From assembly GCA_040905245.1 (NCBI GenBank), contig JBBDRX010000038.1, forward strand, positions 1 through 45,474: a stretch of 45,474 bases of DNA, read 5' to 3'. Both the position numbers and the translations under genes were made by a program. The DNA is from Balneolaceae bacterium. Its GTDB lineage: Bacteria; Bacteroidota; Rhodothermia; Balneolales; Balneolaceae. Of the stretch, positions 7,111-45,474 are shown in pieces. The stretch's first letter is position 1. The number at the start of each line of letters is the position of its first letter. Under the pieces are notes generated by a model. That model was given only the letters and a program-made list of their open reading frames with translations. It was not told the DNA's origin and searched no databases.

Positions 7111-9627
7111 TCAATATCGGAGCCACCCCTTGTCCTCCAGCAACTGAACCAGAGCGGGCAAGAATGTTAAAGCTGTAATGAGAGTCATTCCGACTCCGAC
7201 AACCGCCATAATCCCGATGGACTGTAAACCCGGGTGAGCTGTGAACAGAAGCCCTGCAAAACCCATCATTGTTGTCAGAGAACCGACCGTAATATGTTGT
7301 CCTGTACTGGAGAGAACATTCCACATACTGTTCCGTCCCTCCTCCCGATAACGGTGTGCAATATGGACCCCGTTATCACACCCGATTCCCAGAATAGCCG
7401 GGAGTACAACCAGGTTGTAGAAATTAAACTTGAACCCGGTAATAACCATAAAGCCGAACAGAAACAGAAACCCGATCAGCAACGGAATCATTGCGATGAG
7501 ACCCCACCGGAATGATCGAAAAGAGTAAAACATGAAAAACAGCACGATCAGGAAAGTCGCACTCACCATATACGGACTCTCGTCAATCATCAGGTCCAGC
7601 ATCTCGGCAGCAACAATCGAAGTACTTCCGGCATGATAGACCCTTCCACTGCTTACACTCACCTCGCCAATCTCATTCTTGAAAGCAATGGAACGTCGGC
7701 CGTCAGACAGCCCTTCGTTGGGATAAACAATCAGAAACCTGCCAATTCCGCCATCCCGGGTAACAAACCGGTTCATCAGAAAATCGGGTATCTGATCCCT
7801 GGGGAGCGCCTCTGTAGTTTGAGAAGCTCGTCGCAGCAAATCCAGATCTTCGTCTTCCTGGTCAACCAGAAATGGGTTCCGCAAAAGTCTCCGAACCTCC
7901 GCTATCCGGTCCAGTTTCTGCTCTGCAGCCGCCGGATCCTCGGAGAATCGTTCCTGGAACGCTTCGACACTCAGAATCATGGATTCCGTATTACTCTCTT
8001 TTCGAGCCCGAAGGGTATCCATCACTTCGAACAGATCCTCATCAGTTTCCGTGATTATATAGGCCGGATTCCGCCGGTCGGACTTGTCCACTCCTCTGGT
8101 AAAGTCACGAAACGACTGATACTCCGGAAATTTCGGCTCCAGTTTTGAAAATTCATATTCGAACCGCAGATCACTGCTATAAAACAGTACAACAACAGAA
8201 ATCAGAATCGAGACACCGACAATCCCTCTTACATAGGGATATCGCCGAAACATCGGACGAACCCCGTTTTCCGCTGAACGCTCCACCAGTAAAATCCATC
8301 CCCATCGTTCGAAAAGAGTCAAAATAGAGGGCATGATATAGAGCATGGCCGCAAGGGCAAGCAGAATCCCCGTACCGGAAATCAGCCCGAATTCAGAGAA
8401 TCCGCGGAACTCTGCGATGACCAGGATAAAAAGTGCCGAAGCCGTCGTCAGAGCACTGACAAGTATCGCTGCACCGGTCTTCGAATAGGCTTCCAGGAGT
8501 GCATTCTCAACGCTCTGCCCGACAGAACGCAACTCGATGTATCTTGCGTAGTAATGAATACCGTAATCAATGCCAAGCCCGAAGAGAATCACAAACAGGA
8601 CAGAGGTCATGGTATTGAGCGCTCCAAGAGCCCAATAGGCAATGCCGAACGTCCAGGCAAGGCTGATCAGAAGAGGCACACCGATCACAAGAATCGGAAC
8701 CGGAGAACGAAACAGATGAGACAGGAACCCATGCAGTTGATCGTCACGATGACCCTGCCTGTAATGAAAATACTTTTTGAAAAAGAAGTAGAGGAGTACC
8801 AGGAAAATCACCCCGGAAAATCCGGTGGCAAAACTGTTGAAAACATCCCCCATAATAGACTCAAACTCGTTGAGATGCCGTTTCAGTCGCCCACCGAAAC
8901 GCACCTCCATATCGGGATGATAATTTGCGGGCTCCATCGATGCAATGAGCGTATCAAAGGACTCGAAAAGGTCTTCAAGATATCCAATATCACTTTGTGA
9001 ACCAGTCGGATACATTTTCAGAACCATCAGGGTACTATCCTGGTTCACCGGGAACTCTGTAGGGATCAGGTCGTCATAGGTCTCGCGAAATGAACCCAAA
9101 TCCCCCTCTCCTCTGCCATCATCCTCTCCATCCTCCTCAAAATCCTCTTCAAAATCCACATAGAATGGATTGGCCTCTTCCCTGGCCTGCTCAATCTCCT
9201 CTTCAAGAAACCCGATAATTTGATCCAGCTCCGAATCTGTTGCCAGAAAAAGCGCATTATCTCTCAGTACATCCGTATCTCTTTGATACTCAACCTGACT
9301 GATAAACGACTGGTCACGACGTTCGTCATAAAGCGCCAGACTTTCCTCGATCAGGTCCTCCGCAAACGCTTTGTTTGCCTCAAAACTGGAAGAGCGAATA
9401 GCTACCTCCATCACAGTTTCGCCCCCGACACTCTCCTGAAGAGCCCGGAGTGCCTGGACATTTTCATTCGACTCAGGAAGTAGACTTGCAATATCGGTAT
9501 CAATTTTAAGCTTCAACGCAAAATTGGCCGAAACCAGAGCCGTCAACAAACACAATCCCAAAACCAGATAGGGATAGCGGTAACTGATTTGTACCAGCGG
9601 GCGTAACAGGTGTAATAGCTTTGACAT
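7111..9627 (-). CDS. RND-superfamily exporter, MMPL/HpnN-like (COG1033 type)
   Basis: 838 aa with two repeats of a 6-TM bundle, each preceded by a large soluble loop. The N-terminus YPYLVLGLCLLTALVSANFALKLKIDTDIASLLPES is typical of HpnN-like exporters. GLGIDYGIHY and GIGCDNGVHIAHRY are SSD-type motifs. Confidence 0.8.
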   Translation of the reverse strand: MSKLLHLLRPLVQISYRYPYLVLGLCLLTALVSANFALKLKIDTDIASLLPESNENVQALRALQESVGGETVMEVAIRSSSFEANKAFAEDLIEESLALYDERRDQSFISQVEYQRDTDVLRDNALFLATDSELDQIIGFLEEEIEQAREEANPFYVDFEEDFEEDGEDDGRGEGDLGSFRETYDDLIPTEFPVNQDSTLMVLKMYPTGSQSDIGYLEDLFESFDTLIASMEPANYHPDMEVRFGGRLKRHLNEFESIMGDVFNSFATGFSGVIFLVLLYFFFKKYFHYRQGHRDDQLHGFLSHLFRSPVPILVIGVPLLISLAWTFGIAYWALGALNTMTSVLFVILFGLGIDYGIHYYARYIELRSVGQSVENALLEAYSKTGAAILVSALTTASALFILVIAEFRGFSEFGLISGTGILLALAAMLYIMPSILTLFERWGWILLVERSAENGVRPMFRRYPYVRGIVGVSILISVVVLFYSSDLRFEYEFSKLEPKFPEYQSFRDFTRGVDKSDRRNPAYIITETDEDLFEVMDTLRARKESNTESMILSVEAFQERFSEDPAAAEQKLDRIAEVRRLLRNPFLVDQEDEDLDLLRRASQTTEALPRDQIPDFLMNRFVTRDGGIGRFLIVYPNEGLSDGRRSIAFKNEIGEVSVSSGRVYHAGSTSIVAAEMLDLMIDESPYMVSATFLIVLFFMFYSFRSFRWGLIAMIPLLIGFLFLFGFMVITGFKFNFYNLVVLPAILGIGCDNGVHIAHRYREEGRNSMWNVLSSTGQHITVGSLTTMMGFAGLLFTAHPGLQSIGIMAVVGVGMTLITALTFLPALVQLLEDKGWLRY

Positions 9628-9739
9628 AGGAAACAGGTTGTGAAACAGACCTTAATAATACAAAAAACCCGCGTAATTACGGACTGGTGACCTGTAAAGA
9701 AGAAAACACCACAACCTTTTACTTATTAACGCTTTACAC

Positions 9740-10894
9740 CTACGTCCAATTTCCGGAAACAGCCTGCATCTGTGTGAAGAGTTCACCGCTGCGAAAAGCC
9801 CAGTTTCCGGTATTCAGAACATATAATCGGCCATTCTTCCCCATTTTTGCCGACAAATCTGGTTGCGTAATCAGCTCGCGAATCCGCTGCTTCAGGGTAT
9901 CCGGGTCTCCCTCCGGAACAATAAATCCGGTTTCTCCATCCTGAATCACAGAGGGTATCCCCCCGGAGTCGGACCCGATCACAGGCAGCCCGCACGCATT
10001 GGCTTCCAGAAAAACGATCCCGGCTCCCTCGACATCCGGCTCAATGGTCTGAGAAGGCATGACAAAAAGGTCCGCGAGCTGATAATAATCCCGGACTTTA
10101 TCGTGCGAAATCCGTCCGACAAAATGCACAGACTTCTGCAGGCCCAATTGAGTTGCTAATCTTTCGAGACGATCCTTGTCATTACCTTCGCCTACAATCA
10201 AATAACTAATATCAGAAATATCCTTCAGAAGCTCCGGAAGAATCCGGATTACAAGATCTATACCCTTGCGCGGTACCAACCGTGTGATTGTAATCATTAC
10301 CCGTCTTCCCGCCAACCCCAGCTTCCTTCGCAACACGTCGCTTCTGCCCGGGAAAAAACGATCCGGATCGGTCCCAATAGGAACAATCGTCAACCGTTCT
10401 GCGTCCACTCCCTCTTCGATCAACTGATCGCGTGTATAGCTGCTGACCGGGTAGAAGTGATCAACACATCGTAGAAGATACCGCCGGTATCGTACAAACA
10501 ACCGATTTACCACAGGAATCTTCTCATACGGATTAAACAGCAGTTCACGAAGATGAGCGGCACACTGAATAGAACCTTTCCATCCCCTGCGCCTGGCCAG
10601 AACTGATGCGCCCACCGTCTGCCACTGGGCATGAAAAACCGTATCGACTTTAAACTGTGCCAACAGCCCGGGCAATCGGAAAAGCAGCGGAAACAGAAGA
10701 AGTTCATTACGGCAGGGTACACGGAACACGGGATAGGGAAATTCCGGATCCAATTGATGGGCCCCCTCTGAATCCGGAGCCACCACACCGAACCAGTCGC
10801 ACCGTGATGCAAGATGTTCCGCGTGTGCTGCAGAATAGGTCTGAATCCCGCCCGTATCCGGTGGAAAGTCCTGGCTGATCATCAAGAGTCTCAT
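9740..10894 (-). CDS. Glycosyltransferase family 4 (GT-B, PimB-like)
   Basis: The N-terminus is MRLLMISQDFPPDTGGIQTY. The C-terminal motif is EGAGIVFLEANACGLPVIGSDSGGIPSVIQDGETGFIV. Confidence 0.85.
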   Translation of the reverse strand: MRLLMISQDFPPDTGGIQTYSAAHAEHLASRCDWFGVVAPDSEGAHQLDPEFPYPVFRVPCRNELLLFPLLFRLPGLLAQFKVDTVFHAQWQTVGASVLARRRGWKGSIQCAAHLRELLFNPYEKIPVVNRLFVRYRRYLLRCVDHFYPVSSYTRDQLIEEGVDAERLTIVPIGTDPDRFFPGRSDVLRRKLGLAGRRVMITITRLVPRKGIDLVIRILPELLKDISDISYLIVGEGNDKDRLERLATQLGLQKSVHFVGRISHDKVRDYYQLADLFVMPSQTIEPDVEGAGIVFLEANACGLPVIGSDSGGIPSVIQDGETGFIVPEGDPDTLKQRIRELITQPDLSAKMGKNGRLYVLNTGNWAFRSGELFTQMQAVSGNWT

Positions 10895-10964
10895 GAAAAG
10901 GAATCAGGGGATATTTACACTATATTGGACCCTGAAAGTAACAGATTGCGGCAAGCCCTGAAAC

Positions 10965-11930
10965 ATGAAGTTCAAGAAACAGACAGAGCAGGTCAGAAAC
11001 GCCTTTCAAACCCCATTCGTACAGAAGGTACTCACAGGATTACAGCATATCTTCCTTCTCGCCGTCATCGGATGGCTTCTGTACGAACTCAACGAAATCG
11101 GTTGGCGCACCATCTGGCAATCCCTGCCCGTCCATCCACTCTTTTACCTTCTCATACTCTTCACCTACATTCAGCTTCCCCTTGCCGAAATACTGATCTA
11201 CCGGGTCAGCTGGAGTTTCCAGGCTCTTGCGTCTCTCCCCGCCTTTCTGTTAAAACGCGTATACAACCGTACCCTGCTGGGATATTCCGGCGAACTTTAC
11301 TTCTACACCTGGGCTCGCAAACTGCCGGGGCTGTCCGGACGAGATGTATTCATGACCATCAAGGACAACAACATCCTCTCTTCCATCGCCTCCACTCTCG
11401 TTGCTTTCGGTCTTCTGATCATCTTTCTGCTCACCGGACAGATACAAATTTTCGAATGGATCACCTCCCAGAGTGACGTCGGGTTCTGGGTTATGGGGCT
11501 TGGAACGGTTATGGCAGTGACGCTGATGATCCACTTCCGAAACCGCATCCTGACCATGTCCATGAAAGATGCCTGGAAGATCTTTCTCATTCAGATCGTA
11601 CGACTGTTGCTTCTGCAGGCCGTCAATGTACTGATCTACTACATTGCGATCCCGGACGCTCCTCTGGAGGTATGGTTCACTCTTATCTCGGTAGAGATCA
11701 TACTCTCCAGAATCCCGCTGCTTCCCAATCGTGATCTTATTTTTATTGGAATGAGCATCGGATTGGCGGCCGGGTTAACCATCTCCGAGGAGGAGATTGC
11801 CGGATTGATGGTCGCGAAAACAGCCTTTAACAAACTGGCCGGGCTCATCATTGTCGGTTTTCTGGCATTCACAAAAGCCGATCAGCTGCCGGAAGAACCG
11901 GAATTCCGGGATGAACCGGAACGCTCCTGA
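10965..11930 (+). CDS. Polytopic membrane protein, UPF0104/LPG-synthase-TM (flippase-like) type
   Basis: 321 aa with about 8 TM helices and a basic N-terminus followed by LLAVIGWLLYELNEIGWRTIWQSL, a pattern seen in PF03706-type proteins next to glycosyltransferases. The family call is tentative. Confidence 0.6.
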   Translation: MKFKKQTEQVRNAFQTPFVQKVLTGLQHIFLLAVIGWLLYELNEIGWRTIWQSLPVHPLFYLLILFTYIQLPLAEILIYRVSWSFQALASLPAFLLKRVYNRTLLGYSGELYFYTWARKLPGLSGRDVFMTIKDNNILSSIASTLVAFGLLIIFLLTGQIQIFEWITSQSDVGFWVMGLGTVMAVTLMIHFRNRILTMSMKDAWKIFLIQIVRLLLLQAVNVLIYYIAIPDAPLEVWFTLISVEIILSRIPLLPNRDLIFIGMSIGLAAGLTISEEEIAGLMVAKTAFNKLAGLIIVGFLAFTKADQLPEEPEFRDEPERS

Positions 11931-12829
11931 CCGGTTTTAAAACGGCCGTTCAAGGATCCCATACAAGCCCGGTCGATCCAGTCTCCCCAGGGATACCCGA
12001 TCATCAAAAGAATCAACATGTAGGGGCCAAAATTAATATTCATAATCCAGAGAATCCCCAGGTGCATCCCGATCAAAAGCGTTGCCTGGAATGCCCGGGC
12101 TCGGCGAAACCACAGCAGAAATCCGAACAGTTCGCTCAGCAACCCACCGAGCAACAGCAGAGTCGCCGCCCAGTAGTGCTCAAAGAGAAACTCCTGTAAC
12201 GGGTTGAACCGGAATGTCCCCTGCTGAGATAGCTTGTCGATTGACCGCTCTCCCATCCATAGATAAAGATGTCCTCCGTCCGGCCATATCAGGCCGGTTC
12301 CGACCAGTTTGCTCACCCCGGCAGATACATAGCCGAGTCCGGCAAAAAAGAGCATGAATCCCAGAGCCGCACGCCTTCTCTCCGTTCCCGGCCGGAAAAA
12401 CAGATCCGAAAGTACGAACGAGAGAAGAACCATTCCCGTCAGATTGGTTCCATGACCAATTGCCCCCTGTGAAAACCGGGCGGCATACTGCAAGTGAAAC
12501 AGGATTAACACAACCAGATAGTACCACTTGCCACGCCTCAGAAACCCTGCCAGACCTGCAACCGAGATGAGAAACGCATTCAAAAAAGCCGTCTCCGGCC
12601 GAAAGAAAAAAGACAGGTCAAGATAGTTGGCCAGGCCGGTCGGGCTGAGTACGTCACTGAGCATGGGCAGATAAAACGCCCACTCCCAGGCATGCCATAG
12701 AATCTGAAACACCATTAAAAGTTCAATCAGCCGGACGTGCAGCGATTCCCCCCGGGTTTCAGGCTTCTGAAACCGGAACAGATCTCTCAGGATCTGTTCT
12801 TTTACTGTCCATGTCATGGCTCCCTCCAT
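11882..12829 (-). CDS. Polytopic membrane protein, possibly HTTM-like; function unknown
   Basis: 315 aa with 7-8 TM helices. An alternative start at 12817 would make an ATGA overlap with the upstream gene. The family assignment is weak. Confidence 0.6.
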   Translation of the reverse strand: MEGAMTWTVKEQILRDLFRFQKPETRGESLHVRLIELLMVFQILWHAWEWAFYLPMLSDVLSPTGLANYLDLSFFFRPETAFLNAFLISVAGLAGFLRRGKWYYLVVLILFHLQYAARFSQGAIGHGTNLTGMVLLSFVLSDLFFRPGTERRRAALGFMLFFAGLGYVSAGVSKLVGTGLIWPDGGHLYLWMGERSIDKLSQQGTFRFNPLQEFLFEHYWAATLLLLGGLLSELFGFLLWFRRARAFQATLLIGMHLGILWIMNINFGPYMLILLMIGYPWGDWIDRACMGSLNGRFKTGQERSGSSRNSGSSGS

Positions 12830-13284
12830 TCCGGATGAACAAGCGTGGTATCCGGACCGATATAGACCGCCGGAGTGTAGCGAATCGCCAGCTGTCGATC
12901 CTCGGTCAGAGAGCCTTTTGCCAAATAGATAAGATAGGCCTGCCGGTCGATCCTGTCACCAAAGAAAGCACGAACCTGACGGAGCAGTGATGGACTCCAG
13001 ACTACATTTTTTGTCAGAATCTCTGCAAGATCGTTCTGATTCAGACCAACCTCATCCAGTGCAAACAGGCTTCCGGACAGAATCTCCTCAGTCCCGCTCT
13101 GCCAGTCCGGGATACCGGATCCCGGCTCTTGCTCCATCACCAGAGACTTGGACCATTCATGCCCCGCCTGGGAGAACATCGGATAGATAGAGAAAGGCCA
13201 GAACTCTCCCAAATGACCCGCAACCAGAGCCGCATACAAAAACACAACGACAGCAAGAATTCTTCCGGTTTTTTGATGAATCAT
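12814..13284 (-). CDS. Membrane-anchored hypothetical protein
   Basis: This is ORF 12814..13560 trimmed to Met93 (MIHQKTGRILAVVVFLYAALVAGHLGEFWPFSIYPMFS). The longer form would overlap the divergent GT4 gene, and its extension looks non-coding (R/G/S-rich). Confidence 0.55.
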   Translation of the reverse strand: MIHQKTGRILAVVVFLYAALVAGHLGEFWPFSIYPMFSQAGHEWSKSLVMEQEPGSGIPDWQSGTEEILSGSLFALDEVGLNQNDLAEILTKNVVWSPSLLRQVRAFFGDRIDRQAYLIYLAKGSLTEDRQLAIRYTPAVYIGPDTTLVHPEWREP

Positions 13285-13425
13285 AGATTCGGTAGATTGT
13301 CGTACAGGTTCATCCCGGTGGCCATGAAGTTCGAAGTATCTTACAGAAATCGAAGATGAAAATCTGCCCGGATCATTCCAACCGTAAACAGACATTCCGA
13401 GCATCCCGAAACGGCTGACCCGACC

Positions 13426-14679
13426 GTGACTTCCGACTCTCCAGTCAAACGACTGATTTATACGACACAGTACTCTCCCTGGTCTCCATACAGTGGCGGA
13501 GGACAGCGATCCACGCATAACCTGGCCATGGAAATGTCCCGACGGGGTCATGAGGTCCATGTCATCTACTCACGAACACCTTTTGACCACTACACCGTAC
13601 CTGACGATCTCCCCTACCAGATTCACTGGGCTACCCTCTTCCATTACAGAAGCAGCCGACAGGCTCCTCTCCGGCCGATGACATCGCTGGACGTTCATCG
13701 AATCGCCTCATCGCTGATTCAAAACAGCTCGTTACCTGTAGTGGTCCATGCAAATGGAGAAGAGGCTGCCAGAGTGGGCATGATACGAAGGCGATTCCCT
13801 TTTTTATTTGTGGTAACGCCCCGATATCCGGACTACCCTGCAGCCATTGGCAGGTGGAACAATCTCTCTGCCGGGGAGCGAATCCTGCTCTGGCTTCGTG
13901 AGTGGAAGTACCTGGCTCTTGGACAGGCTTTGAAACAGGCAGATCTGGTCTGTCCTCCCAGCAGCTGGGCAGGAGAACAGGTCAAAAGTCTCTACGGGCT
14001 GAACCGTGAGCGGATCCGGCCAGTTTCCAACGGTGTGCCCAAAGAGTTTCTACAGATTGAACGCTCCGCTGAGGCGTCGTCCGGCCCCATCTTTTTCTTT
14101 GGAAGGCTCAGTTACGACAAGGGAGTGGACCTTCTCCTTCGGGCCTACCGGGAACTACCCGCTTCCCGTCCGGCTCTCCATATTGCCGGAGCCGGTGAAG
14201 AGGAGAACAGGCTGCGAACGATAGCCACTGAAATGAACCTTCAGGAGTCGGTGCTGTTCTTGCCCTGGCAAACCCATTCCCAGCTTGCAGAGAGGCTGTC
14301 AAAAGCCCGAATGGCTGTTCTTCCGTCACGAAACGAAAACTACAGTCTGGCTGTCCTCTCTGCCATGGCAAGTGGTACACCCACACTGTCGACCCGTGTC
14401 GGCGGAACCGTGGAACAGATCCGTGACAAAAAAGACGGGATCCTGGTGAATGTTGAAGAGGTCCGGCAATTAACAGAGGCCATGAGCTGGATCATTCGGC
14501 ATCCGGAAAGGGCGGAAGATATGGGCCGTAAAGCCGCCAGACGAATGGCAGAAACCCATACCTGGCAAGCAACCTGCAACAGGCTGGAGAACCTCTACGA
14601 TCACTCCCTGAGTGACATCTCGGCACGCTCCGGCTCCCGACGCCTCTTCAGGCGCTCCCATTCACGATCGGCAAACTGA
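13426..14679 (+). CDS. Glycosyltransferase family 4 (GT-B)
   Basis: It has a GTG start. Motifs are YSPWSPYSGGGQRSTHNLAMEMSRRGHEVHV and a C-terminal E-x7-E region (NENYSLAVLSAMASGTPTLSTRVGGTVEQIRDKKDGILV). Confidence 0.85.
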   Translation: MTSDSPVKRLIYTTQYSPWSPYSGGGQRSTHNLAMEMSRRGHEVHVIYSRTPFDHYTVPDDLPYQIHWATLFHYRSSRQAPLRPMTSLDVHRIASSLIQNSSLPVVVHANGEEAARVGMIRRRFPFLFVVTPRYPDYPAAIGRWNNLSAGERILLWLREWKYLALGQALKQADLVCPPSSWAGEQVKSLYGLNRERIRPVSNGVPKEFLQIERSAEASSGPIFFFGRLSYDKGVDLLLRAYRELPASRPALHIAGAGEEENRLRTIATEMNLQESVLFLPWQTHSQLAERLSKARMAVLPSRNENYSLAVLSAMASGTPTLSTRVGGTVEQIRDKKDGILVNVEEVRQLTEAMSWIIRHPERAEDMGRKAARRMAETHTWQATCNRLENLYDHSLSDISARSGSRRLFRRSHSRSAN

Positions 14680-15614
14680 TAGAAGGTTTTTTTCTGATGA
14701 ATCCATCCGAAATGGAGAGTATAGGGAGTAACCAGCCGATAGTCCCCCTTACCAGGGAGAAGCCCGAAAAGCCTGATCAGAATTACACGAAGCCACTTCT
14801 GCTTCAGCCCACGAAAGCTGTAAACAAACGGATTACCGTAATAGAGACAACGAACCTTTTTGAAGGATTCATCAAACGTTGTATAACTATCTATGAAGTC
14901 AAGTTGAGGGCTGTAATCTCCCTGAAACCAGGGATAAACAGACAGATTGTACTGAGCCATCGCCATCGCCATACTCCACTCACAAGACTCTTCAGAACGG
15001 CCGGTCTCCCGAAGTCGGCTGTGAAAATGAGTCTCTTTCTTATGGCGGTACAGTTCGGCTGCTCGCTCGCACACTTGCCTGGTCAGCTTCGTATCGGCCG
15101 CATAGATCATCCCGCTCTGAACCCGCGAGAGATGAGTGAGTCCAAACCGTTTCAATGTCCGTTTTCTGCGCTGTAAAAAGATATCGAAAACCACTCCGAT
15201 ATGCTTCGAAGATCCGAAAAAGTTGTCAGAAACTTCCAGTCCTGTAATCGTAAAGGGATAGGGCGAAAAAGAAGCCCAGAGAGAATCAGGACTCTTGCAC
15301 CAGATGATGTCACTATCAAGAAACAGCGTCCGGCTGTAAGGCGCATAGTGGTGAAGGTTGTGCTTAAAGCCGGTAATCGACTGATGATTTTCAGGAAGGG
15401 GAACCAGCTGGTCAAACAACTTGTCCAGTCCTGTTTCACGGAGCTGGTCAAGCTGGTTGGTATCAGCAGCCAGGGTGACGGGCCGGTGACTGTCATAACG
15501 GCGAAGCGTGGATACACTGGCAACCACATGCCTTAGATATTTCTGATCACCGTATGAGTGATACAGATACCCCTCTTTCTTTATATCTCCATTCGTGTGG
15601 ATAGACCTTGTCAT
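14601..15614 (-). CDS. Putative nucleotide-sugar transferase, GT-A/GT8-like (DxD)
   Basis: 337 aa. The motifs YLYHSYGDQKYLRHVVASVSTL and RTLFLDSDIIW (DxD) fit a GT-A fold. The family is not verified. Confidence 0.55.
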   Translation of the reverse strand: MTRSIHTNGDIKKEGYLYHSYGDQKYLRHVVASVSTLRRYDSHRPVTLAADTNQLDQLRETGLDKLFDQLVPLPENHQSITGFKHNLHHYAPYSRTLFLDSDIIWCKSPDSLWASFSPYPFTITGLEVSDNFFGSSKHIGVVFDIFLQRRKRTLKRFGLTHLSRVQSGMIYAADTKLTRQVCERAAELYRHKKETHFHSRLRETGRSEESCEWSMAMAMAQYNLSVYPWFQGDYSPQLDFIDSYTTFDESFKKVRCLYYGNPFVYSFRGLKQKWLRVILIRLFGLLPGKGDYRLVTPYTLHFGWIHQKKTFYQFADREWERLKRRREPERAEMSLRE

Positions 15615-15616
15615 AT

Positions 15617-16231
15617 TCAGATTCTCGAAGCTCGTCTGCGCAAGCTCTCCATCAACGCATCAAACCCTCTCTGTCGGATAATACTCTGAAACTGCCGTTG
15701 GTAAGAACCCGTCGTGGATACCTCATCAATGATCATATCTGTAATTCTCCATTCTCCTTCTTCCCGAACCATCGTATAGTGAACGGGCGTTTGGACATTA
15801 TCCAGCTTTACCACCGTTTTGACAAGAGCCTCCGACTCTTCCACCTCAATTTCATTGTAACTCACCTCTGCACGATAGATATCCAGCCGATTCATCGACT
15901 GATCACGTACGATTTTGGAAAAAAGGTCGATAAACTCTTCTCTTTCAACGGATTCAATCTCATCAAAATGACCCCTCAAAGCCTCGGACGCCATTCTTCG
16001 AAAATCGATCATCCCGTTGATAATCTGCTGGAGTTTCTCTCTCTGCTCTTCGGAATGTTCAGTCCCGGCCGGCCCGACCAGCTGTTTGATCTGTGCGTCC
16101 CGTTCTTCCAGAATTATGCGAATCTCTTGCTCCGGTGTCGTATTTTCCTGAAGACCGTAGAGAGATATCTCCTCCCAACCGGAGCTGCCACCAAACAGAA
16201 AAACCGCTGCAAAGATTAATCCTTTTATCAT
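15617..16231 (-). CDS. MlaC/Ttg2D (HpnM-like) periplasmic lipid-binding protein
   Basis: It has a signal peptide. IDFRRMASEALRGHFDEIESVEREEFIDLFSKIV and WRITDMIIDEVSTTGSYQRQFQSII match the MlaC-family pattern (fDf..ma...lG..w / WkvyDv.ieGvSlv..yr.qF). Confidence 0.8.
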   Translation of the reverse strand: MIKGLIFAAVFLFGGSSGWEEISLYGLQENTTPEQEIRIILEERDAQIKQLVGPAGTEHSEEQREKLQQIINGMIDFRRMASEALRGHFDEIESVEREEFIDLFSKIVRDQSMNRLDIYRAEVSYNEIEVEESEALVKTVVKLDNVQTPVHYTMVREEGEWRITDMIIDEVSTTGSYQRQFQSIIRQRGFDALMESLRRRASRI

Positions 16232-16232
16232 A

Positions 16233-17618
16233 CTATCTTACCTGTTCTGATCCAAGTTGTCTGATTGGAATCCCTGATGCTTTATAGAGAGCTGCAACCT
16301 TTTTATTCAGATCGAACACATTTTGTTTCAACGTAACACGCAATTCCAGCTCTTTTCGCACCGAATCAATCAGGTCTTCCACTTCTCCAAAACCATAATC
16401 GTAGTTCAATTGTTCATGCCGGACCCAATTTCTTGTCGTTGCAAGAGCCTCTTCTGTATTATTCAGGCGGCTCTCGGCAACCACGGCCTCCATATAACTC
16501 TCATTCAACTCCAGCATAATCACATCCGATAGCGCCTCCCTCAGATCCCGTACCCGGTTGTATGAGATCCGTTCCCGTTCCAGACGATTTCGCACCGAAG
16601 AAAAATTCAGGTTTTGACGAATACCGAAACCAACTGCTCCGGAGAGATAGTTCGTATTGTTAATGATGAACGGGTTACTCTGTCTTGGCCGGTTGGGTGT
16701 ATTGGCAAAGCTGGCGGTTAACCCCAGATAGACCATTGGCAACTGTTGCGATTTCAACGCCTCAATGGAGTGCTCATAGGCCTGAATTCCCGCCTCGGCA
16801 CCTTTCAGTTCCGGCCGATGGTCAGCGGCCATCTGCTGATAATAGTCAAACGGCTCCAATTGAACGGCTACAGGGTCCAGAAACGACTCCTCCGGCAGAT
16901 AGTAACTGGCCTGACCTTCACCCAATACCGACCTCCAGATGCGCTCAATTCGATTTCGGCTCTGCTCTACCTCTGTTTGCTGTGTCCGAAATTCACTGCG
17001 ATAGATTTCGAACTGAAAGACATCCTTCTCTTTCAGATTCGGATCCTCCTCTTGCCTCATCTGTTCAATCTGTTTTTCCACCTGTTCAATCGTCTCTTCG
17101 GCGTCCCTGAGAACACGCTCGACCTCCAGAGCAAGTAAAAAGCTGTAGTAGAGTTCATAAAGCTGAACTTCCAGATTCTGTTTGCTCGTCAGAAACTCCT
17201 GTTCGGCGGCTCTGGCACCAAATTCTGCTGCCTGGATGGCATTGTTTACAGCTCCCCAGGTAAATACTGGCTGAACCGCTTCGAGCTCTGCACGAGTAAA
17301 AATCGCCCAGTTTTCCCAGTCATTCTCAAGATCCGGATCCAGATAGTACTCATTCCTGTCGAGCTGATCATTTCTGCTGTGAACCCCGGGAACCAGACCA
17401 TGATTGGTATTGAAACTGACCGACGGCAGAATCCGGCTGGCTCTCGCCTGATCGATTCGGTTTTTTGCCAGATCAACAGCACCATACTCATAGTCCAGCT
17501 GGCCAGACCTCTCCAGCCCACGGTCTATAAACTCCTGAAGGGAAACCCGCAATGTATCCTGGGCTTGAATCGGCTGGACGCTGATAAAAAAGAGCAGCAG
17601 TACGTAGAGCGGTTTCAT
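16233..17618 (-). CDS. TolC-family outer membrane efflux protein
   Basis: This is ORF 16233..17732 trimmed to MKPLYVLLLFFISVQPIQAQ (signal peptide). It shows a two-fold repeat of coiled-coil and beta segments, and LDYEYGAVDLAKNRIDQARASRILPSVSF is typical of the OEP family. Confidence 0.8.
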   Translation of the reverse strand: MKPLYVLLLFFISVQPIQAQDTLRVSLQEFIDRGLERSGQLDYEYGAVDLAKNRIDQARASRILPSVSFNTNHGLVPGVHSRNDQLDRNEYYLDPDLENDWENWAIFTRAELEAVQPVFTWGAVNNAIQAAEFGARAAEQEFLTSKQNLEVQLYELYYSFLLALEVERVLRDAEETIEQVEKQIEQMRQEEDPNLKEKDVFQFEIYRSEFRTQQTEVEQSRNRIERIWRSVLGEGQASYYLPEESFLDPVAVQLEPFDYYQQMAADHRPELKGAEAGIQAYEHSIEALKSQQLPMVYLGLTASFANTPNRPRQSNPFIINNTNYLSGAVGFGIRQNLNFSSVRNRLERERISYNRVRDLREALSDVIMLELNESYMEAVVAESRLNNTEEALATTRNWVRHEQLNYDYGFGEVEDLIDSVRKELELRVTLKQNVFDLNKKVAALYKASGIPIRQLGSEQVR

Positions 17619-17694
17619 AATCGATGGAACTTGTTGATCAGGTAAAAAACGGTTCAGATTTGCCCTTGCTAACGGCCAGAAACTGGATTTATTC

Positions 17695-17722
17695 AAACAA
17701 AAAAAGCTCCTGTTCGGAGCTC
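17695..17722 (-). terminator. Rho-independent terminator after tRNA-Ser (end of the atp transcription unit)
   Basis: The minus strand reads AGCTCC-GAACA-GGAGCT followed by TTTTTTTGTTTG. Confidence 0.6.
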
Positions 17723-17800
17723 TGTTCAACATTCGGCCATTCTGCCCTGACCCAAGTAAAGGCCCTCTCCTCTGTGGAAGAGGTTGTTCAGTAATAAGAG

Positions 17801-17887
17801 CGGAGGGCGAGGGATTCGAACCCCCGGAGACCGCAAGGCCTCAACGGTTTTCAAGACCGCCGCATTCGACCACTCTGCCAGCCCTCC
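17801..17887 (-). tRNA. tRNA-Ser (anticodon UGA), type II with long variable arm; CCA not encoded
   Basis: Hand-folded. The acceptor is GGAGGGC/GCCCTCC with discriminator G. The D-stem is GCA/TGC. The anticodon stem is GCGGT/ACCGT with loop CT-TGA-AA. The variable arm is 18 nt. The T-arm is GGGGG-TTCGAAT-CCCTC. Confidence 0.9.
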
Positions 17888-43068: not shown

Positions 43069-45474
43069 TTGATCCTACGCTGGCTACATATCATCTGGAA
43101 GTTTCTGCTCAGAACGATCACCTCCGTACTGATCGTCACGGTTGCGGCCACCCTTCTTCTCTTTGCCCTGCTTCAGCTTCCTGACAGCAAGGGATGGCTT
43201 TCAGACAAGATTGAACAACAGTTCAATCAGACCTACCGTGGAACCCTCGAAATCGGTGAAGTTACCGGACTGATCCCTTTTCACATAGGTTTGACGGATG
43301 TTCACATCCGGAGCAATCCCGAAGACCCGATATCGGTTCTTTCTGCAGACCGAATCACTGCAAACGTGCGGGTTTGGAGCCTTCTTCAGCGCACAGTGGA
43401 CATCCACTCCCTTGAGCTGGATAACCCGACACTGAGACTATCAACCGACCAGGAAGGACAACCTGTCCTTCGGCGTACACTTGAAAAGAGAGACCCGGCA
43501 GCTGAAAATAAACAAACCGGTCGCCCCGGCACCCTTTTTGAACTGATGGCCCCAGCCATCACAATCCGGAACGGCCATATAGAGAGCGCTGCCGGACCAA
43601 AAACAGCGGGGAGCCTCTCCCCCCTCCTGCCACTTCGGGAGGTTGATGCTTCTGTCTACCTTGAACTCTCATCTACCGAACGATTTCTGGACATCTCATA
43701 CATTACAGGAACCTCTTCCGATGAACGTCTGGGCTCCTTTTTTATCGCCGGACAGCTCTTCAGTGACAACGAATTCCTGGAACTGAACGGATTTCAGGTT
43801 CGCACTCCGTCTTCTCAACTCAATTTTACAGCAGAAGCCACGCCGGTCGACCTATTCGGGCAGAACTTTGAAAAACAGTTGCGAGAAGCCGACTTCCGGT
43901 TCGATCTGAACGAGAGCTGGATTGAGGGAGATGCCATTGCTAACCTTGTCGAAGAGTGGCCATTCCCCGAAAGCATGGTTCGGATGGAACTTTTGCTGGA
44001 GGGAAGCCTCGAAACCCTTTACCTCGACCGCTTTATCGGTTCTGTCGGAAACAGCTCACTGCTGATGACCGGACAATTTAATCAGCTGGACAGCTCCGAT
44101 TTCAACTGGGAAGCAAGACTCGAAAATCTGCTTCTCCACAGGTCAGAGCTGGAACAGCTGTTTCGTGAGGATCCGAATGTCAATTCGCGCACCGACTACT
44201 TTTCCGAGAGCCGTTTCTACGGGCAGGTGGGTGGTACACCGGACCAGTTGAATGGTTCACTCGAAATCAACACCGTTTCCGGAGATTTCCAGCTGGATGG
44301 ATCTCTGCAATTCAGAGAACCATTTCAGTACGAGGCGGATGCTGTACTGGACTCACTGGACATCTCTCCTCTCTTCCCGGGTTATCTGGAGCAGAGCCTG
44401 CTCGACGGTCGTATTTCACTGCGTGGTGAGGGTGCAGGAGTCGAAGAGAGCCAGGGGCGGATTAACATCTCGCTAAACAGAGGCGAATTGAACCGGATTC
44501 ACTTCAATCAGGGAACTGTGGAAGCTGAATGGGCCGATCAGCGCCTGGAACATCAATTGTTCATCGGAGATGAACGAACTTCCTTTCGATCCACAGGGTC
44601 GGTCGGAAAACGTAACGACGAGTGGTCACTGGATCTGGAGGGAGAGGCCCAAAACCTTGACCTGAAGGCCCTCTATCCCGATCTGCCGCGGTCGGTTGAA
44701 TCCCTCAGTATGGATTACCGGACTCGAGTTCAATGGAGTTCGCCGGACGATCTCGCCGGACAACTCAGTGTGGAAATAGAGCAGCTGGTCATGCAGCCGG
44801 ATACTCTGCAAAATCACCAGTTTTACATCGACATCAACCGGCCGGACGAGACGAGTGGTTCACGCCAGCTTCGTTTGACAAGTACCTTCATGGACGCCGA
44901 AATGGAGGGCGATATATACCCTGTAAACCTCCGAAATCTATACCGGCACTGGCATTTCTATGTTGACCGCCATATTCAGGAAGACCTGCTGTTTTCACCG
45001 TCCGATGAATCGGACGAGACCGCGACCGCCGACCCGGCAGAACTCACACTTTCCCTGGAGCTGAAAGAGTTCTCTCTACTTCGACACTATATTCCCTCCC
45101 TTCCGGATCTGAGAAGCAACAGCTCCATCCGGCTGAACCTGAAGGGAAGTGCAGAGGAACTTCTGCTGACCGGTTCACTTCATGACAACGGGCTGGAAGC
45201 AGGGCCTTTTTTTGCCGAAACGATTGCTGCAGACCTGACGGCGAACTTCAGATACGACGACCACCTGCATGAGAACTCGACCTTTGATCTGCAGATTCGT
45301 TCCACAGAGTACGGGTGGAATAACCTGCTCTTTCACGAGGGGTTTCTGAACAGCTCTCTTGAAAATGACCAGTTGATGTTGAGTCACAACACAAGAAACC
45401 ACGAGAACGATTTCGAATTGGACATGACTCTCATCTCTCACCTCCAGCCGACAGAGATCAGAATAGAACTGAGA
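43069..45474 (+). CDS. TamB/AsmA-like translocation-and-assembly-module protein, 3-prime end beyond window
   Basis: Frame 1 stays open from the TTG at 43069 to the window end (about 800 codons). It is not in the ORF track because it has no stop. The N-terminal anchor is LRTITSVLIVTVAATLLLFALLQL, followed by long beta-rich sequence (GTLEIGEVTGLIPFHIGLTDVHI...). Both the family call and the start codon are tentative. Confidence 0.6.
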   Translation, partial: MILRWLHIIWKFLLRTITSVLIVTVAATLLLFALLQLPDSKGWLSDKIEQQFNQTYRGTLEIGEVTGLIPFHIGLTDVHIRSNPEDPISVLSADRITANVRVWSLLQRTVDIHSLELDNPTLRLSTDQEGQPVLRRTLEKRDPAAENKQTGRPGTLFELMAPAITIRNGHIESAAGPKTAGSLSPLLPLREVDASVYLELSSTERFLDISYITGTSSDERLGSFFIAGQLFSDNEFLELNGFQVRTPSSQLNFTAEATPVDLFGQNFEKQLREADFRFDLNESWIEGDAIANLVEEWPFPESMVRMELLLEGSLETLYLDRFIGSVGNSSLLMTGQFNQLDSSDFNWEARLENLLLHRSELEQLFREDPNVNSRTDYFSESRFYGQVGGTPDQLNGSLEINTVSGDFQLDGSLQFREPFQYEADAVLDSLDISPLFPGYLEQSLLDGRISLRGEGAGVEESQGRINISLNRGELNRIHFNQGTVEAEWADQRLEHQLFIGDERTSFRSTGSVGKRNDEWSLDLEGEAQNLDLKALYPDLPRSVESLSMDYRTRVQWSSPDDLAGQLSVEIEQLVMQPDTLQNHQFYIDINRPDETSGSRQLRLTSTFMDAEMEGDIYPVNLRNLYRHWHFYVDRHIQEDLLFSPSDESDETATADPAELTLSLELKEFSLLRHYIPSLPDLRSNSSIRLNLKGSAEELLLTGSLHDNGLEAGPFFAETIAADLTANFRYDDHLHENSTFDLQIRSTEYGWNNLLFHEGFLNSSLENDQLMLSHNTRNHENDFELDMTLISHLQPTEIRIELR

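Follow-up and report, generated by a model that had tools for sequence, protein, structure and literature searches.

A route leading out of the inner membrane and into the outer one has been proposed for hopanoids, comprising HpnN (MMPL), HpnM (MlaC-like), HpnL (MprF/AglD-like) and HpnS (MlaA-like) (2025 preprint, PMC12324291). HpnN has been characterised; that HpnM acts as a shuttle is a proposal, as are the functions assigned to HpnS and HpnL (PMC12324291). Here, we describe an envelope locus of about 11 kb on a 45,474-nucleotide stretch of DNA from a Balneolaceae bacterium (contig JBBDRX010000038.1 of assembly GCA_040905245.1; the whole stretch is referred to as the window). The proteobacterial HpnN–HpnM–HpnL set is the closest known system, and its MMPL and MlaC families, together with a putative MprF-like protein, are encoded here in a single locus that lacks ABC and MCE components. 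The locus is best read as an RND pump, a periplasmic lipid carrier and an outer-membrane partner, that is, as a putative variant of the HpnN–HpnM-type lipid-export route that uses a TolC-family partner.

The locus differs from HpnN–HpnM in several respects. All three window proteins scored far below the Hpn equivalog level or had no such score, and no hopanoid biosynthesis families were found in Pfam scans of the window or of the related loci. Instead of the MlaA-like HpnS, a TolC-family protein stands here as the outer-membrane partner. A hypervariable glycosyltransferase island is enclosed here, and the hosts are Balneolales rather than Proteobacteria.

MlaEFD is widespread in diderm bacteria, and MlaA, MlaB and MlaC are reported to occur largely in Proteobacteria and in phyla close to them (PMC10665443). 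In Negativicutes, mlaEFD is followed by tolC and tamB, which is the only published Mla–tolC adjacency that we found (PMC10665443). Like the Mla system (MlaFEDB–MlaC–MlaA/OmpC), the Balneolaceae locus pairs a soluble MlaC-fold carrier, presumably an intermembrane shuttle, with an outer-membrane protein. However, the carrier gene is coupled here with one of the TolC family and has an RND pump linked to it, and MlaD (MCE), MlaE, MlaF, MlaB and MlaA were neither found in the window nor recurrent in the ±10 kb around the related genes. When every plausible open reading frame (ORF) of at least 150 amino acids in the window was scanned with Pfam, no membrane-fusion protein (MFP), MlaA, MlaD or ABC ATPase was detected, as had been stated in a preliminary description of this DNA made from the sequence alone. 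The MCE, MlaE, MlaF, MlaA and HlyD families were also absent from the recurrent genes within ±10 kb of 83 relatives. Since neither the window nor the recurrent genes of the related loci include MlaFEDB or MlaA, the locus is not an Mla system, and since they include no MFP, it is not a tripartite efflux pump. Tripartite RND pumps of the AcrAB–TolC type resemble it in combining an RND inner-membrane transporter with an outer-membrane factor of the OEP/TolC family, but here the membrane-fusion adaptor is lacking, the RND protein is of the MMPL/HAE3 and not the HAE1 type, and a lipid carrier takes the periplasmic position.

In the DevBCA–HgdD heterocyst glycolipid exporter of Anabaena, a TolC-family protein delivers a glycolipid beyond the inner membrane, as is proposed here; that exporter uses an ABC transporter and an MFP, with no MlaC-like carrier and no RND protein. 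The mycobacterial MmpL exporters of glycolipids and sulfolipids have an MMPL/RND protein encoded beside lipid-tailoring enzymes (glycosyltransferases, sulfotransferases), as here, and the sterol system BstABC is comparable in its BstA-type RND protein, periplasmic lipid binder and outer-membrane-associated partner. The periplasmic partners are MmpS, LpqN or BstB/BstC in those systems, in contrast to MlaC and TolC here, and the mycobacterial envelope is of a different type. The layout is similar to that of group 2/3 capsule (kps) loci, in which conserved export arms surround a serotype-specific mosaic glycan region and the product is a lipid-anchored surface glycan; the kps export genes encode an ABC transporter, a PCP and an OPX protein, none of which is found here. 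Literature searches on MlaC with TolC, MMPL or HAE3 yielded no description of an OEP–MlaC–MMPL arrangement, and the preliminary description had likewise not recognised the architecture as a described system. The feature is real and conserved, and apparently undescribed.

The MlaC-Family Carrier and the TolC-Family Gene

Three minus-strand genes are best explained as the promoter-proximal arm of the locus (Table 1). Their ORFs span 16233–17732, 15617–16231 and 14601–15614, and they are separated by exactly 1 nt (16232) and 2 nt (15615–15616). These coordinates agree with the tight operon that had been proposed before.

The product of the middle gene matched the MlaC family PF05494 with 102.1 bits (cut-off 26; E = 3.7e-29; residues 58–198), and a profile built from 22 of its homologues matched the MlaC-family chains 11hy, 2qgu, 8dte and 8oj4 in the PDB. 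The 204-residue protein, previously labelled as MlaC/HpnM-like, is therefore a member of this family. The HpnM model TIGR03481 and the MlaC equivalog NF011697 gave 57.1 and 24.3 bits, below their cut-offs of 160.1 and 195, respectively; the best NCBIfam model was HpnM and not MlaC. A signal peptide was present in the carrier and in its homologues, and the carrier contains no cysteine, so it should be soluble in the periplasm.

The product of the first gene matched PF02321 in two repeats with 116.4 bits (cut-off 22; E = 1.8e-33), in line with the TolC-like label it had been given. TIGR01844 (TolC type I secretion/efflux) and TIGR01845 (NodT lipoprotein) gave 61.5 and 22.7 bits, below their cut-offs of 225 and 210, respectively. 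A sequence search of the PDB with this protein returned nothing at E ≤ 1e-3, so its predicted membership of the TolC/OEP family is based on Pfam. Translation from the ATG at 17618 yielded a Sec signal peptide (MKPLYVLLLFFISVQPIQAQ, cleaved before DT), and the AQDT cleavage site (cut between AQ and DT) is kept in relatives. The longer ORF from 17732 crosses a terminator-like hairpin (17723–17703). On account of the signal peptide, the conserved site and the hairpin, the true start is most likely the one assumed at the outset, 17618, rather than 17732. Both the OEP and the MlaC-like protein have cleavable signal peptides without a lipobox; after its signal peptide the OEP protein has no cysteine, i.e., no lipobox cysteine.

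A tRNA-Ser(UGA) gene is located at 17800–17887 on the minus strand, and the hairpin lies between it and the OEP start; both elements stand between atpG and the OEP gene. As these elements intervene, the trio is separate from the upstream atp operon, and the idea that it forms part of that operon was rejected. A sigma-70 scan found 11 sites compared with 9.6 ± 3.8 in shuffled sequence, which is no excess; Bacteroidota-type promoters fall outside such a scan.

Conservation in Balneolales

In a species scan with one genome per species, 181 species carried a relative of the MlaC-like gene. The best 80 of these 181 loci and three loci obtained via the GT8-like protein encoded by the third gene of the trio (83 relatives, L001–L083) were compared by tblastn and ORF clustering, and their neighbourhoods were examined within ±10 kb. 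Loci with enough DNA downstream of MlaC (62) were treated as informative. The best 80 of the 181 loci were all from Balneolales, as were the best 120 homologues listed for each protein; among the matches listed, the organism names of the homologues of the GT8-like, MlaC-like and flippase-like proteins were nearly all Balneolaceae or Balneolales. Two loci, L040 (PXDG01000021.1) and L076 (LKNA01000004.1), were deposited as "Parcubacteria group bacterium" and "Chitinophagaceae bacterium", respectively. Both contigs carry Balneolales-type OEP–MlaC genes (60–65% identity), L076 together with atpG, and they are probably mis-binned or mislabelled contigs of metagenome-assembled genomes.

The OEP gene was located upstream of MlaC in 81 of 84 loci, the window included, and was missing only where the contig was cut. 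The order atpG–OEP–MlaC was seen wherever the contig allowed, and the median distance between OEP and MlaC was 7 nt (n = 80 loci), which is more than a chance adjacency. Of the 62 informative loci, 41 had the GT8-like gene, 33 of these directly after MlaC, and 21 lacked it. Synteny in relatives, which had been expected of the whole trio, was therefore complete for OEP–MlaC and only partial for the GT8-like gene. The conserved core is OEP–MlaC, and the GT8-like gene is common but optional.

This conservation bears on the view that both proteins have conventional roles, the TolC-like protein being a shared duct for pumps encoded elsewhere, the MlaC-like protein serving an MlaFED complex elsewhere and the gene order being a historical accident. 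TolC genes are often unlinked from their pumps. The wide distribution of MlaEFD in diderms also fits this view, but MlaA, MlaB and MlaC have been reported mostly from Proteobacteria and phyla near them (PMC10665443). OEP and MlaC stayed close to translationally coupled across 80 species-level genomes, the carrier scored higher with HpnM (57 bits), its best NCBIfam model, than with MlaC (24 bits), and an HpnN-like pump is linked. To judge from the window and the loci compared, conventional roles with an accidental gene order are improbable.

The HpnN-Like MMPL Pump

An MMPL gene lies 5 kb downstream of the trio on the same strand. Its product matched PF03176 in two stretches with 139.7 bits (cut-off 20.5; E = 1.4e-40) and contains 12 hydrophobic segments (about 12 transmembrane segments). 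The best NCBIfam models were HpnN (TIGR03480), HAE3 (TIGR00921) and BstA, with E-values of 6e-78, 8e-58 and 2.5e-51, respectively, all below the equivalog cut-offs. For HpnN itself, the scores were 262.7 bits against a cut-off of 751.85 (TIGR03480) and 152.3 bits against 1100 (NF052374). The closest PDB structures were those of HpnN, 6wu0 and 5khn (E = 4.5e-26).

MMPL was located on the OEP–MlaC strand, 3.4–10.3 kb downstream, in 31 of the 62 informative loci. It closes all 31 of the islands that fit in 10 kb, always on the same strand, including those of the deepest-branching loci L031, L070 and L075. Directly before MMPL, a DUF3047 protein with a signal peptide, perhaps an accessory of the pump in the periplasm, is encoded in 16 of the 31 loci (L001, L002, L023 and others), but not in the window.

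The preliminary description had found the trio to be without adaptor or Mla partners. This is literally true, but it is misleading: the HpnN-like MMPL gene 5 kb away corresponds to the very HpnN/HpnM pairing that had been cited as the norm. The trio is also not partnerless, as the MMPL RND protein is a recurrent inner-membrane partner and a putative MprF-type flippase-like protein is encoded in the island as well. No canonical MFP or Mla set proved to be a conserved partner in the relatives; the RND partner emerged instead.

It had further been suggested that the trio alone makes up a dedicated route for a glycosylated lipid, with no inner-membrane transporter as a partner. The tight three-gene operon and the lack of Mla, ABC and MFP genes in the window agree with such a route, but it would have no energy source and no inner-membrane extraction step. 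Moreover, the HpnN-like RND protein and the flippase-like protein are encoded in the same locus and recur in relatives, and a third of the loci lack the GT8-like gene. A link to a glycosylated lipid is still plausible, but a self-contained three-gene unit is highly improbable in a locus of 11 kb.

The Variable Glycan Island

The 337-residue product of the third gene gave no Pfam, NCBIfam or PDB sequence match above threshold. With PF01501 (GT8) it scored 13.3 bits, below the cut-off of 24.3, so it is not placed in GT8 at the sequence level; of 30 homologues, 13 matched PF01501, all below threshold (best E = 1.5e-5). An AlphaFold2 model built on 30 homologues (pLDDT 86.9) gave glycogenin, LgtC, XXYLT1 and LARGE1 as top Foldseek matches (probability 1.0; E ~1e-8), with TM-scores to GT8 structures of 0.43–0.56 when normalised by target length. 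The D100-S-D102 motif (DxD) was invariant in the 30 homologues, and so was a C-terminal LHFGW.H.K motif (H301/H306/K308). Judged by the model, the protein has the GT8 fold and is a predicted glycosyltransferase, which accords with its earlier description as a DxD GT-A-like enzyme. The family is narrow, with 171 representative clusters at E ≤ 1e-3 among 1.84 billion proteins. The gene overlaps the convergent GT4 gene by 79 nt at the 3' ends (14601–14679); the C-terminal tail of the GT8-like protein is its least conserved part, and pLDDT falls there.

In 71 of 82 loci the gene after MlaC was on the same strand, at a median distance of 39 nt. The GT8-like gene filled this slot in 47 loci, a GT2 gene in 11 (−4 to +9 nt from MlaC), a Wzi-like gene in 5 and a GT4 gene in 4. 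Some glycosyltransferase holds the slot in about three quarters of the species at operon spacing, and its co-transcription with mlaC would tie transport to glycosylation. To judge from gene order, the post-mlaC slot is the strongest argument for such a link.

All 31 complete islands contained at least one predicted glycosyltransferase, and 29 of the 31 contained a putative flippase of one of two near-exclusive types. The recurrent island families were GT2, GT4, GT4-like and GT8 glycosyltransferases, sulfotransferases, Stealth hexose-phosphate transferases, three Wzx-type flippase families, two Wzi-like outer-membrane families, a TagF-like glycerophosphotransferase, myo-inositol-1-phosphate synthase with a nucleotidyltransferase, a methyltransferase and DUF3047. 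Islands without the GT8-like gene often contained myo-inositol-1-phosphate synthase, the nucleotidyltransferase and the TagF-like gene (for example, L028:16297–17619, L054:9669–10403 and L041:12233–13408), which hints at inositol-phosphate or polyol-phosphate decoration of their product. WaaL, Wzy, Wza and Wzc families were not detected among the recurrent island genes. Across Balneolales, the ~11-kb locus (7111–17618 in the window) consists of conserved arms around a hypervariable mosaic glycan island.

In the window, the flippase-like protein is a 321-residue membrane protein. This protein and its homologue set gave no Pfam or NCBIfam match. Its AlphaFold2 model, made with database homologues (pLDDT 78.7), matched four MprF structures in Foldseek (7f47, 9goe, 9j8s and 9j8q) with TM-scores of 0.62–0.65 over about 300 columns; the probability of these matches was 1.0 but their E-values were 2e-3 to 4e-2, and all other matches had TM-scores of at most 0.21. 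The matched region of MprF is its transmembrane flippase domain, and one homologue of the 321-residue protein is named "flippase-like domain-containing" in UniRef. The MprF-like gene alone was found in 24 of the 62 loci, a Wzx gene alone in 30, both in 4 and neither in 4 (Fisher p = 3e-9, not corrected for phylogeny). The near-exclusivity suggests that MprF-like and Wzx proteins are alternative, perhaps interchangeable, flippases for the same step.

The genes of the islands also admit of an adjacency without a shared cargo. The island would then be a locus for lipopolysaccharide (LPS) core and O-antigen or for capsule, with products that exit through Wzx together with a ligase or polymerase and through Lpt or some other route, and OEP–MlaC, with or without MMPL, would be housekeeping genes for another lipid (phospholipid, aminolipid or carotenoid), maybe co-regulated with the island. 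Wzx, Wzi-like, Stealth, TagF-like and sulfotransferase genes do occur in the islands, the GT8 fold is common to the LPS and lipooligosaccharide transferase LgtC, some loci have no MMPL, and an invariant OEP–MlaC pair beside a mosaic island is what is expected of core genes near a recombination hot spot. However, mlaC and the first gene of the island usually share an orientation and are only tens of nucleotides apart or overlap, and a different glycosyltransferase takes the same slot when the GT8-like gene is absent. In addition, the families absent from the recurrent island genes include WaaL, Wzy, Wza and Wzc, and islands of the window type have no Wzx at all, only the putative MprF-like flippase and MMPL. 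Taking both sides together, we regard an adjacency without shared cargo as rather unlikely.

Proposed Route

We consider it an even call that OEP–MlaC and MMPL are export arms and that the variable middle of the locus sets the head group of a lipid-linked surface glycoconjugate, a reading drawn from gene content and order. In the first step, a membrane lipid would receive its sugar head group from cytoplasmic glycosyltransferases (in the window the GT8-like enzyme and both GT4s, in other species different sets). The product would then reach the inner membrane's outer leaflet by way of a flippase, here the MprF-like protein and in other species a Wzx-type protein. The HpnN-like MMPL RND pump would extract the lipid at the expense of the proton-motive force, and the soluble MlaC-family protein would shield its acyl or hydrophobic part and ferry it across the periplasm. 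At the outer membrane, the TolC-family protein would accept the lipid or let it out. On this reading, arms and island would serve one product, presumably a glycolipid, transport would run outward, and the carrier would contact the TolC-like protein or MMPL. Unidentified glycolipids have been reported in Fodinibius species and are candidate cargo in cultured relatives (PMC12260241).

Several points weigh against the export-arm reading, the strongest being the capsule- or O-antigen-like character of many islands, the separate transcription of MMPL and the lack of a precedent for a transfer from an MlaC-fold carrier to TolC. MMPL was not reached within the 10-kb flank in 31 of the 62 loci, in most of which the island extends beyond that flank, and in the Rhodohalobacter-type loci L003, L005, L076 and L077 the island ends with no MMPL nearby. 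In the window, MMPL belongs to another transcription unit than the trio, with a terminator-like site ahead of it at 9685–9666. The statistics on exclusivity and synteny ignore phylogeny and are hence weak. Many islands carry genes for Wzx, Wzi-like barrels, Stealth and TagF-like proteins, and these are typical of undecaprenyl-linked capsule and O-antigen pathways that have their own export logic. Bacterial GT8 enzymes are typically LPS-core transferases. Finally, we know of no TolC-family protein that takes lipid from an MlaC-family carrier, and there is no MFP to bridge to TolC. The fuller claim, an undescribed trans-envelope route in which a proton-driven HAE3/MMPL protein hands a strain-variable glycolipid to an MlaC-family chaperone and onward to a TolC-family protein with no MFP, MCE or ABC component, is put forward only tentatively.

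Other Genes of the Locus and the Window

Five genes lie between the trio and the MMPL gene in the window: two GT4s, a two-gene membrane module and the 321-residue membrane protein (Table 1).

Table 1. Features of the envelope locus and their positions in the window.
Feature	Position	Strand	Basis
HpnN-like MMPL/HAE3 RND inner-membrane transporter, 838 aa	7111–9627	−	PF03176
Second GT4 glycosyltransferase, 384 aa, upstream of MMPL	9740–10894	−	Glycos_transf_1, E = 2.7e-49
MprF-flippase-domain-like membrane protein, 321 aa	10965–11930	+	Structural match
Multi-pass membrane protein, 315 aa	11882–12829	−	At least 3 transmembrane segments, weak HTTM-like match
Small single-pass membrane protein, ~156 aa	12814–13284	−	Transmembrane residues 101–119 of the long ORF
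GT4 glycosyltransferase, convergent with the GT8-like gene	13426–14679	+	Glycos_transf_1, E = 8e-35; Glyco_transf_4, E = 3e-17
GT8-like (GT-A fold, DxD) putative glycosyltransferase, 337 aa, cytoplasmic, no transmembrane segment	14601–15614	−	Fold match
MlaC-family periplasmic lipid-binding protein, 204 aa	15617–16231	−	PF05494
TolC/OEP-family outer-membrane protein, 461 aa	16233–17618	−	PF02321
Terminator-like hairpin followed by a T-run	17703–17723	−	Consensus match only

The 384-residue GT4 showed sub-threshold NCBIfam likeness to lipid-glycosylating GT4s, namely monoglucosyl-diacylglycerol synthase (4.9e-17) and GlcN-PG synthase (7.6e-18). The small single-pass protein had no family match in the Pfam and NCBIfam scans. 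Its homologues measure 152–161 residues and cover about 60% of the long ORF in alignments, and the listed ORF of 248 residues (to 13560) is probably too long. The small protein invariably occurs together with the 315-residue multi-pass protein, the two being found in 23–25 loci. The HTTM match of the multi-pass protein (E = 6e-4) was below the cut-off and was not reproduced in 15 homologues, and this identity was therefore not relied on. Two unrelated-looking versions of a module consisting of a multi-pass protein and a small single-pass protein (~155–170 residues) recur in the islands, for example, at 11882–13284 (minus strand) in the window, and at L037:18723–19838 with L083:13151–13669. The multi-pass member of both versions has a weakly HTTM-like N-terminus.

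At the far end of the window, 25 kb from the trio, an AsmA-family ORF of at least 800 residues with an N-terminal transmembrane helix (E = 1.9e-16) occupies ~43100–45474 on the plus strand and runs off the end. It is a candidate TamB/AsmA-type bridge-like lipid transporter. The ORF-poor region at 43–45.5 kb had been considered as rRNA or a repeat array; Rfam and repeat finders were negative, and this was rejected in favour of the AsmA-family ORF.

Significance for the Balneolales Envelope

The delivery to the outer membrane of lipids other than LPS and lipoproteins has been studied almost only in Proteobacteria. The locus provides a natural test outside Proteobacteria, in which an MlaC-fold carrier is fixed beside a TolC-family gene across an order-level lineage. 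If the proposed route is true, the MlaC fold would serve generally as a lipid shuttle of the periplasm, able to combine with various engines and various receivers in the outer membrane. Lipid delivery would be a new function for TolC-family proteins, and they would be the third type of partner for MlaC-fold carriers, after MlaA and HpnS. The locus would also give a genetic handle on the unidentified glycolipids of the Balneolaceae taxonomy papers. If its parts are unconnected, the locus is still a clear hot spot of surface-glycan diversity, anchored by core envelope genes.

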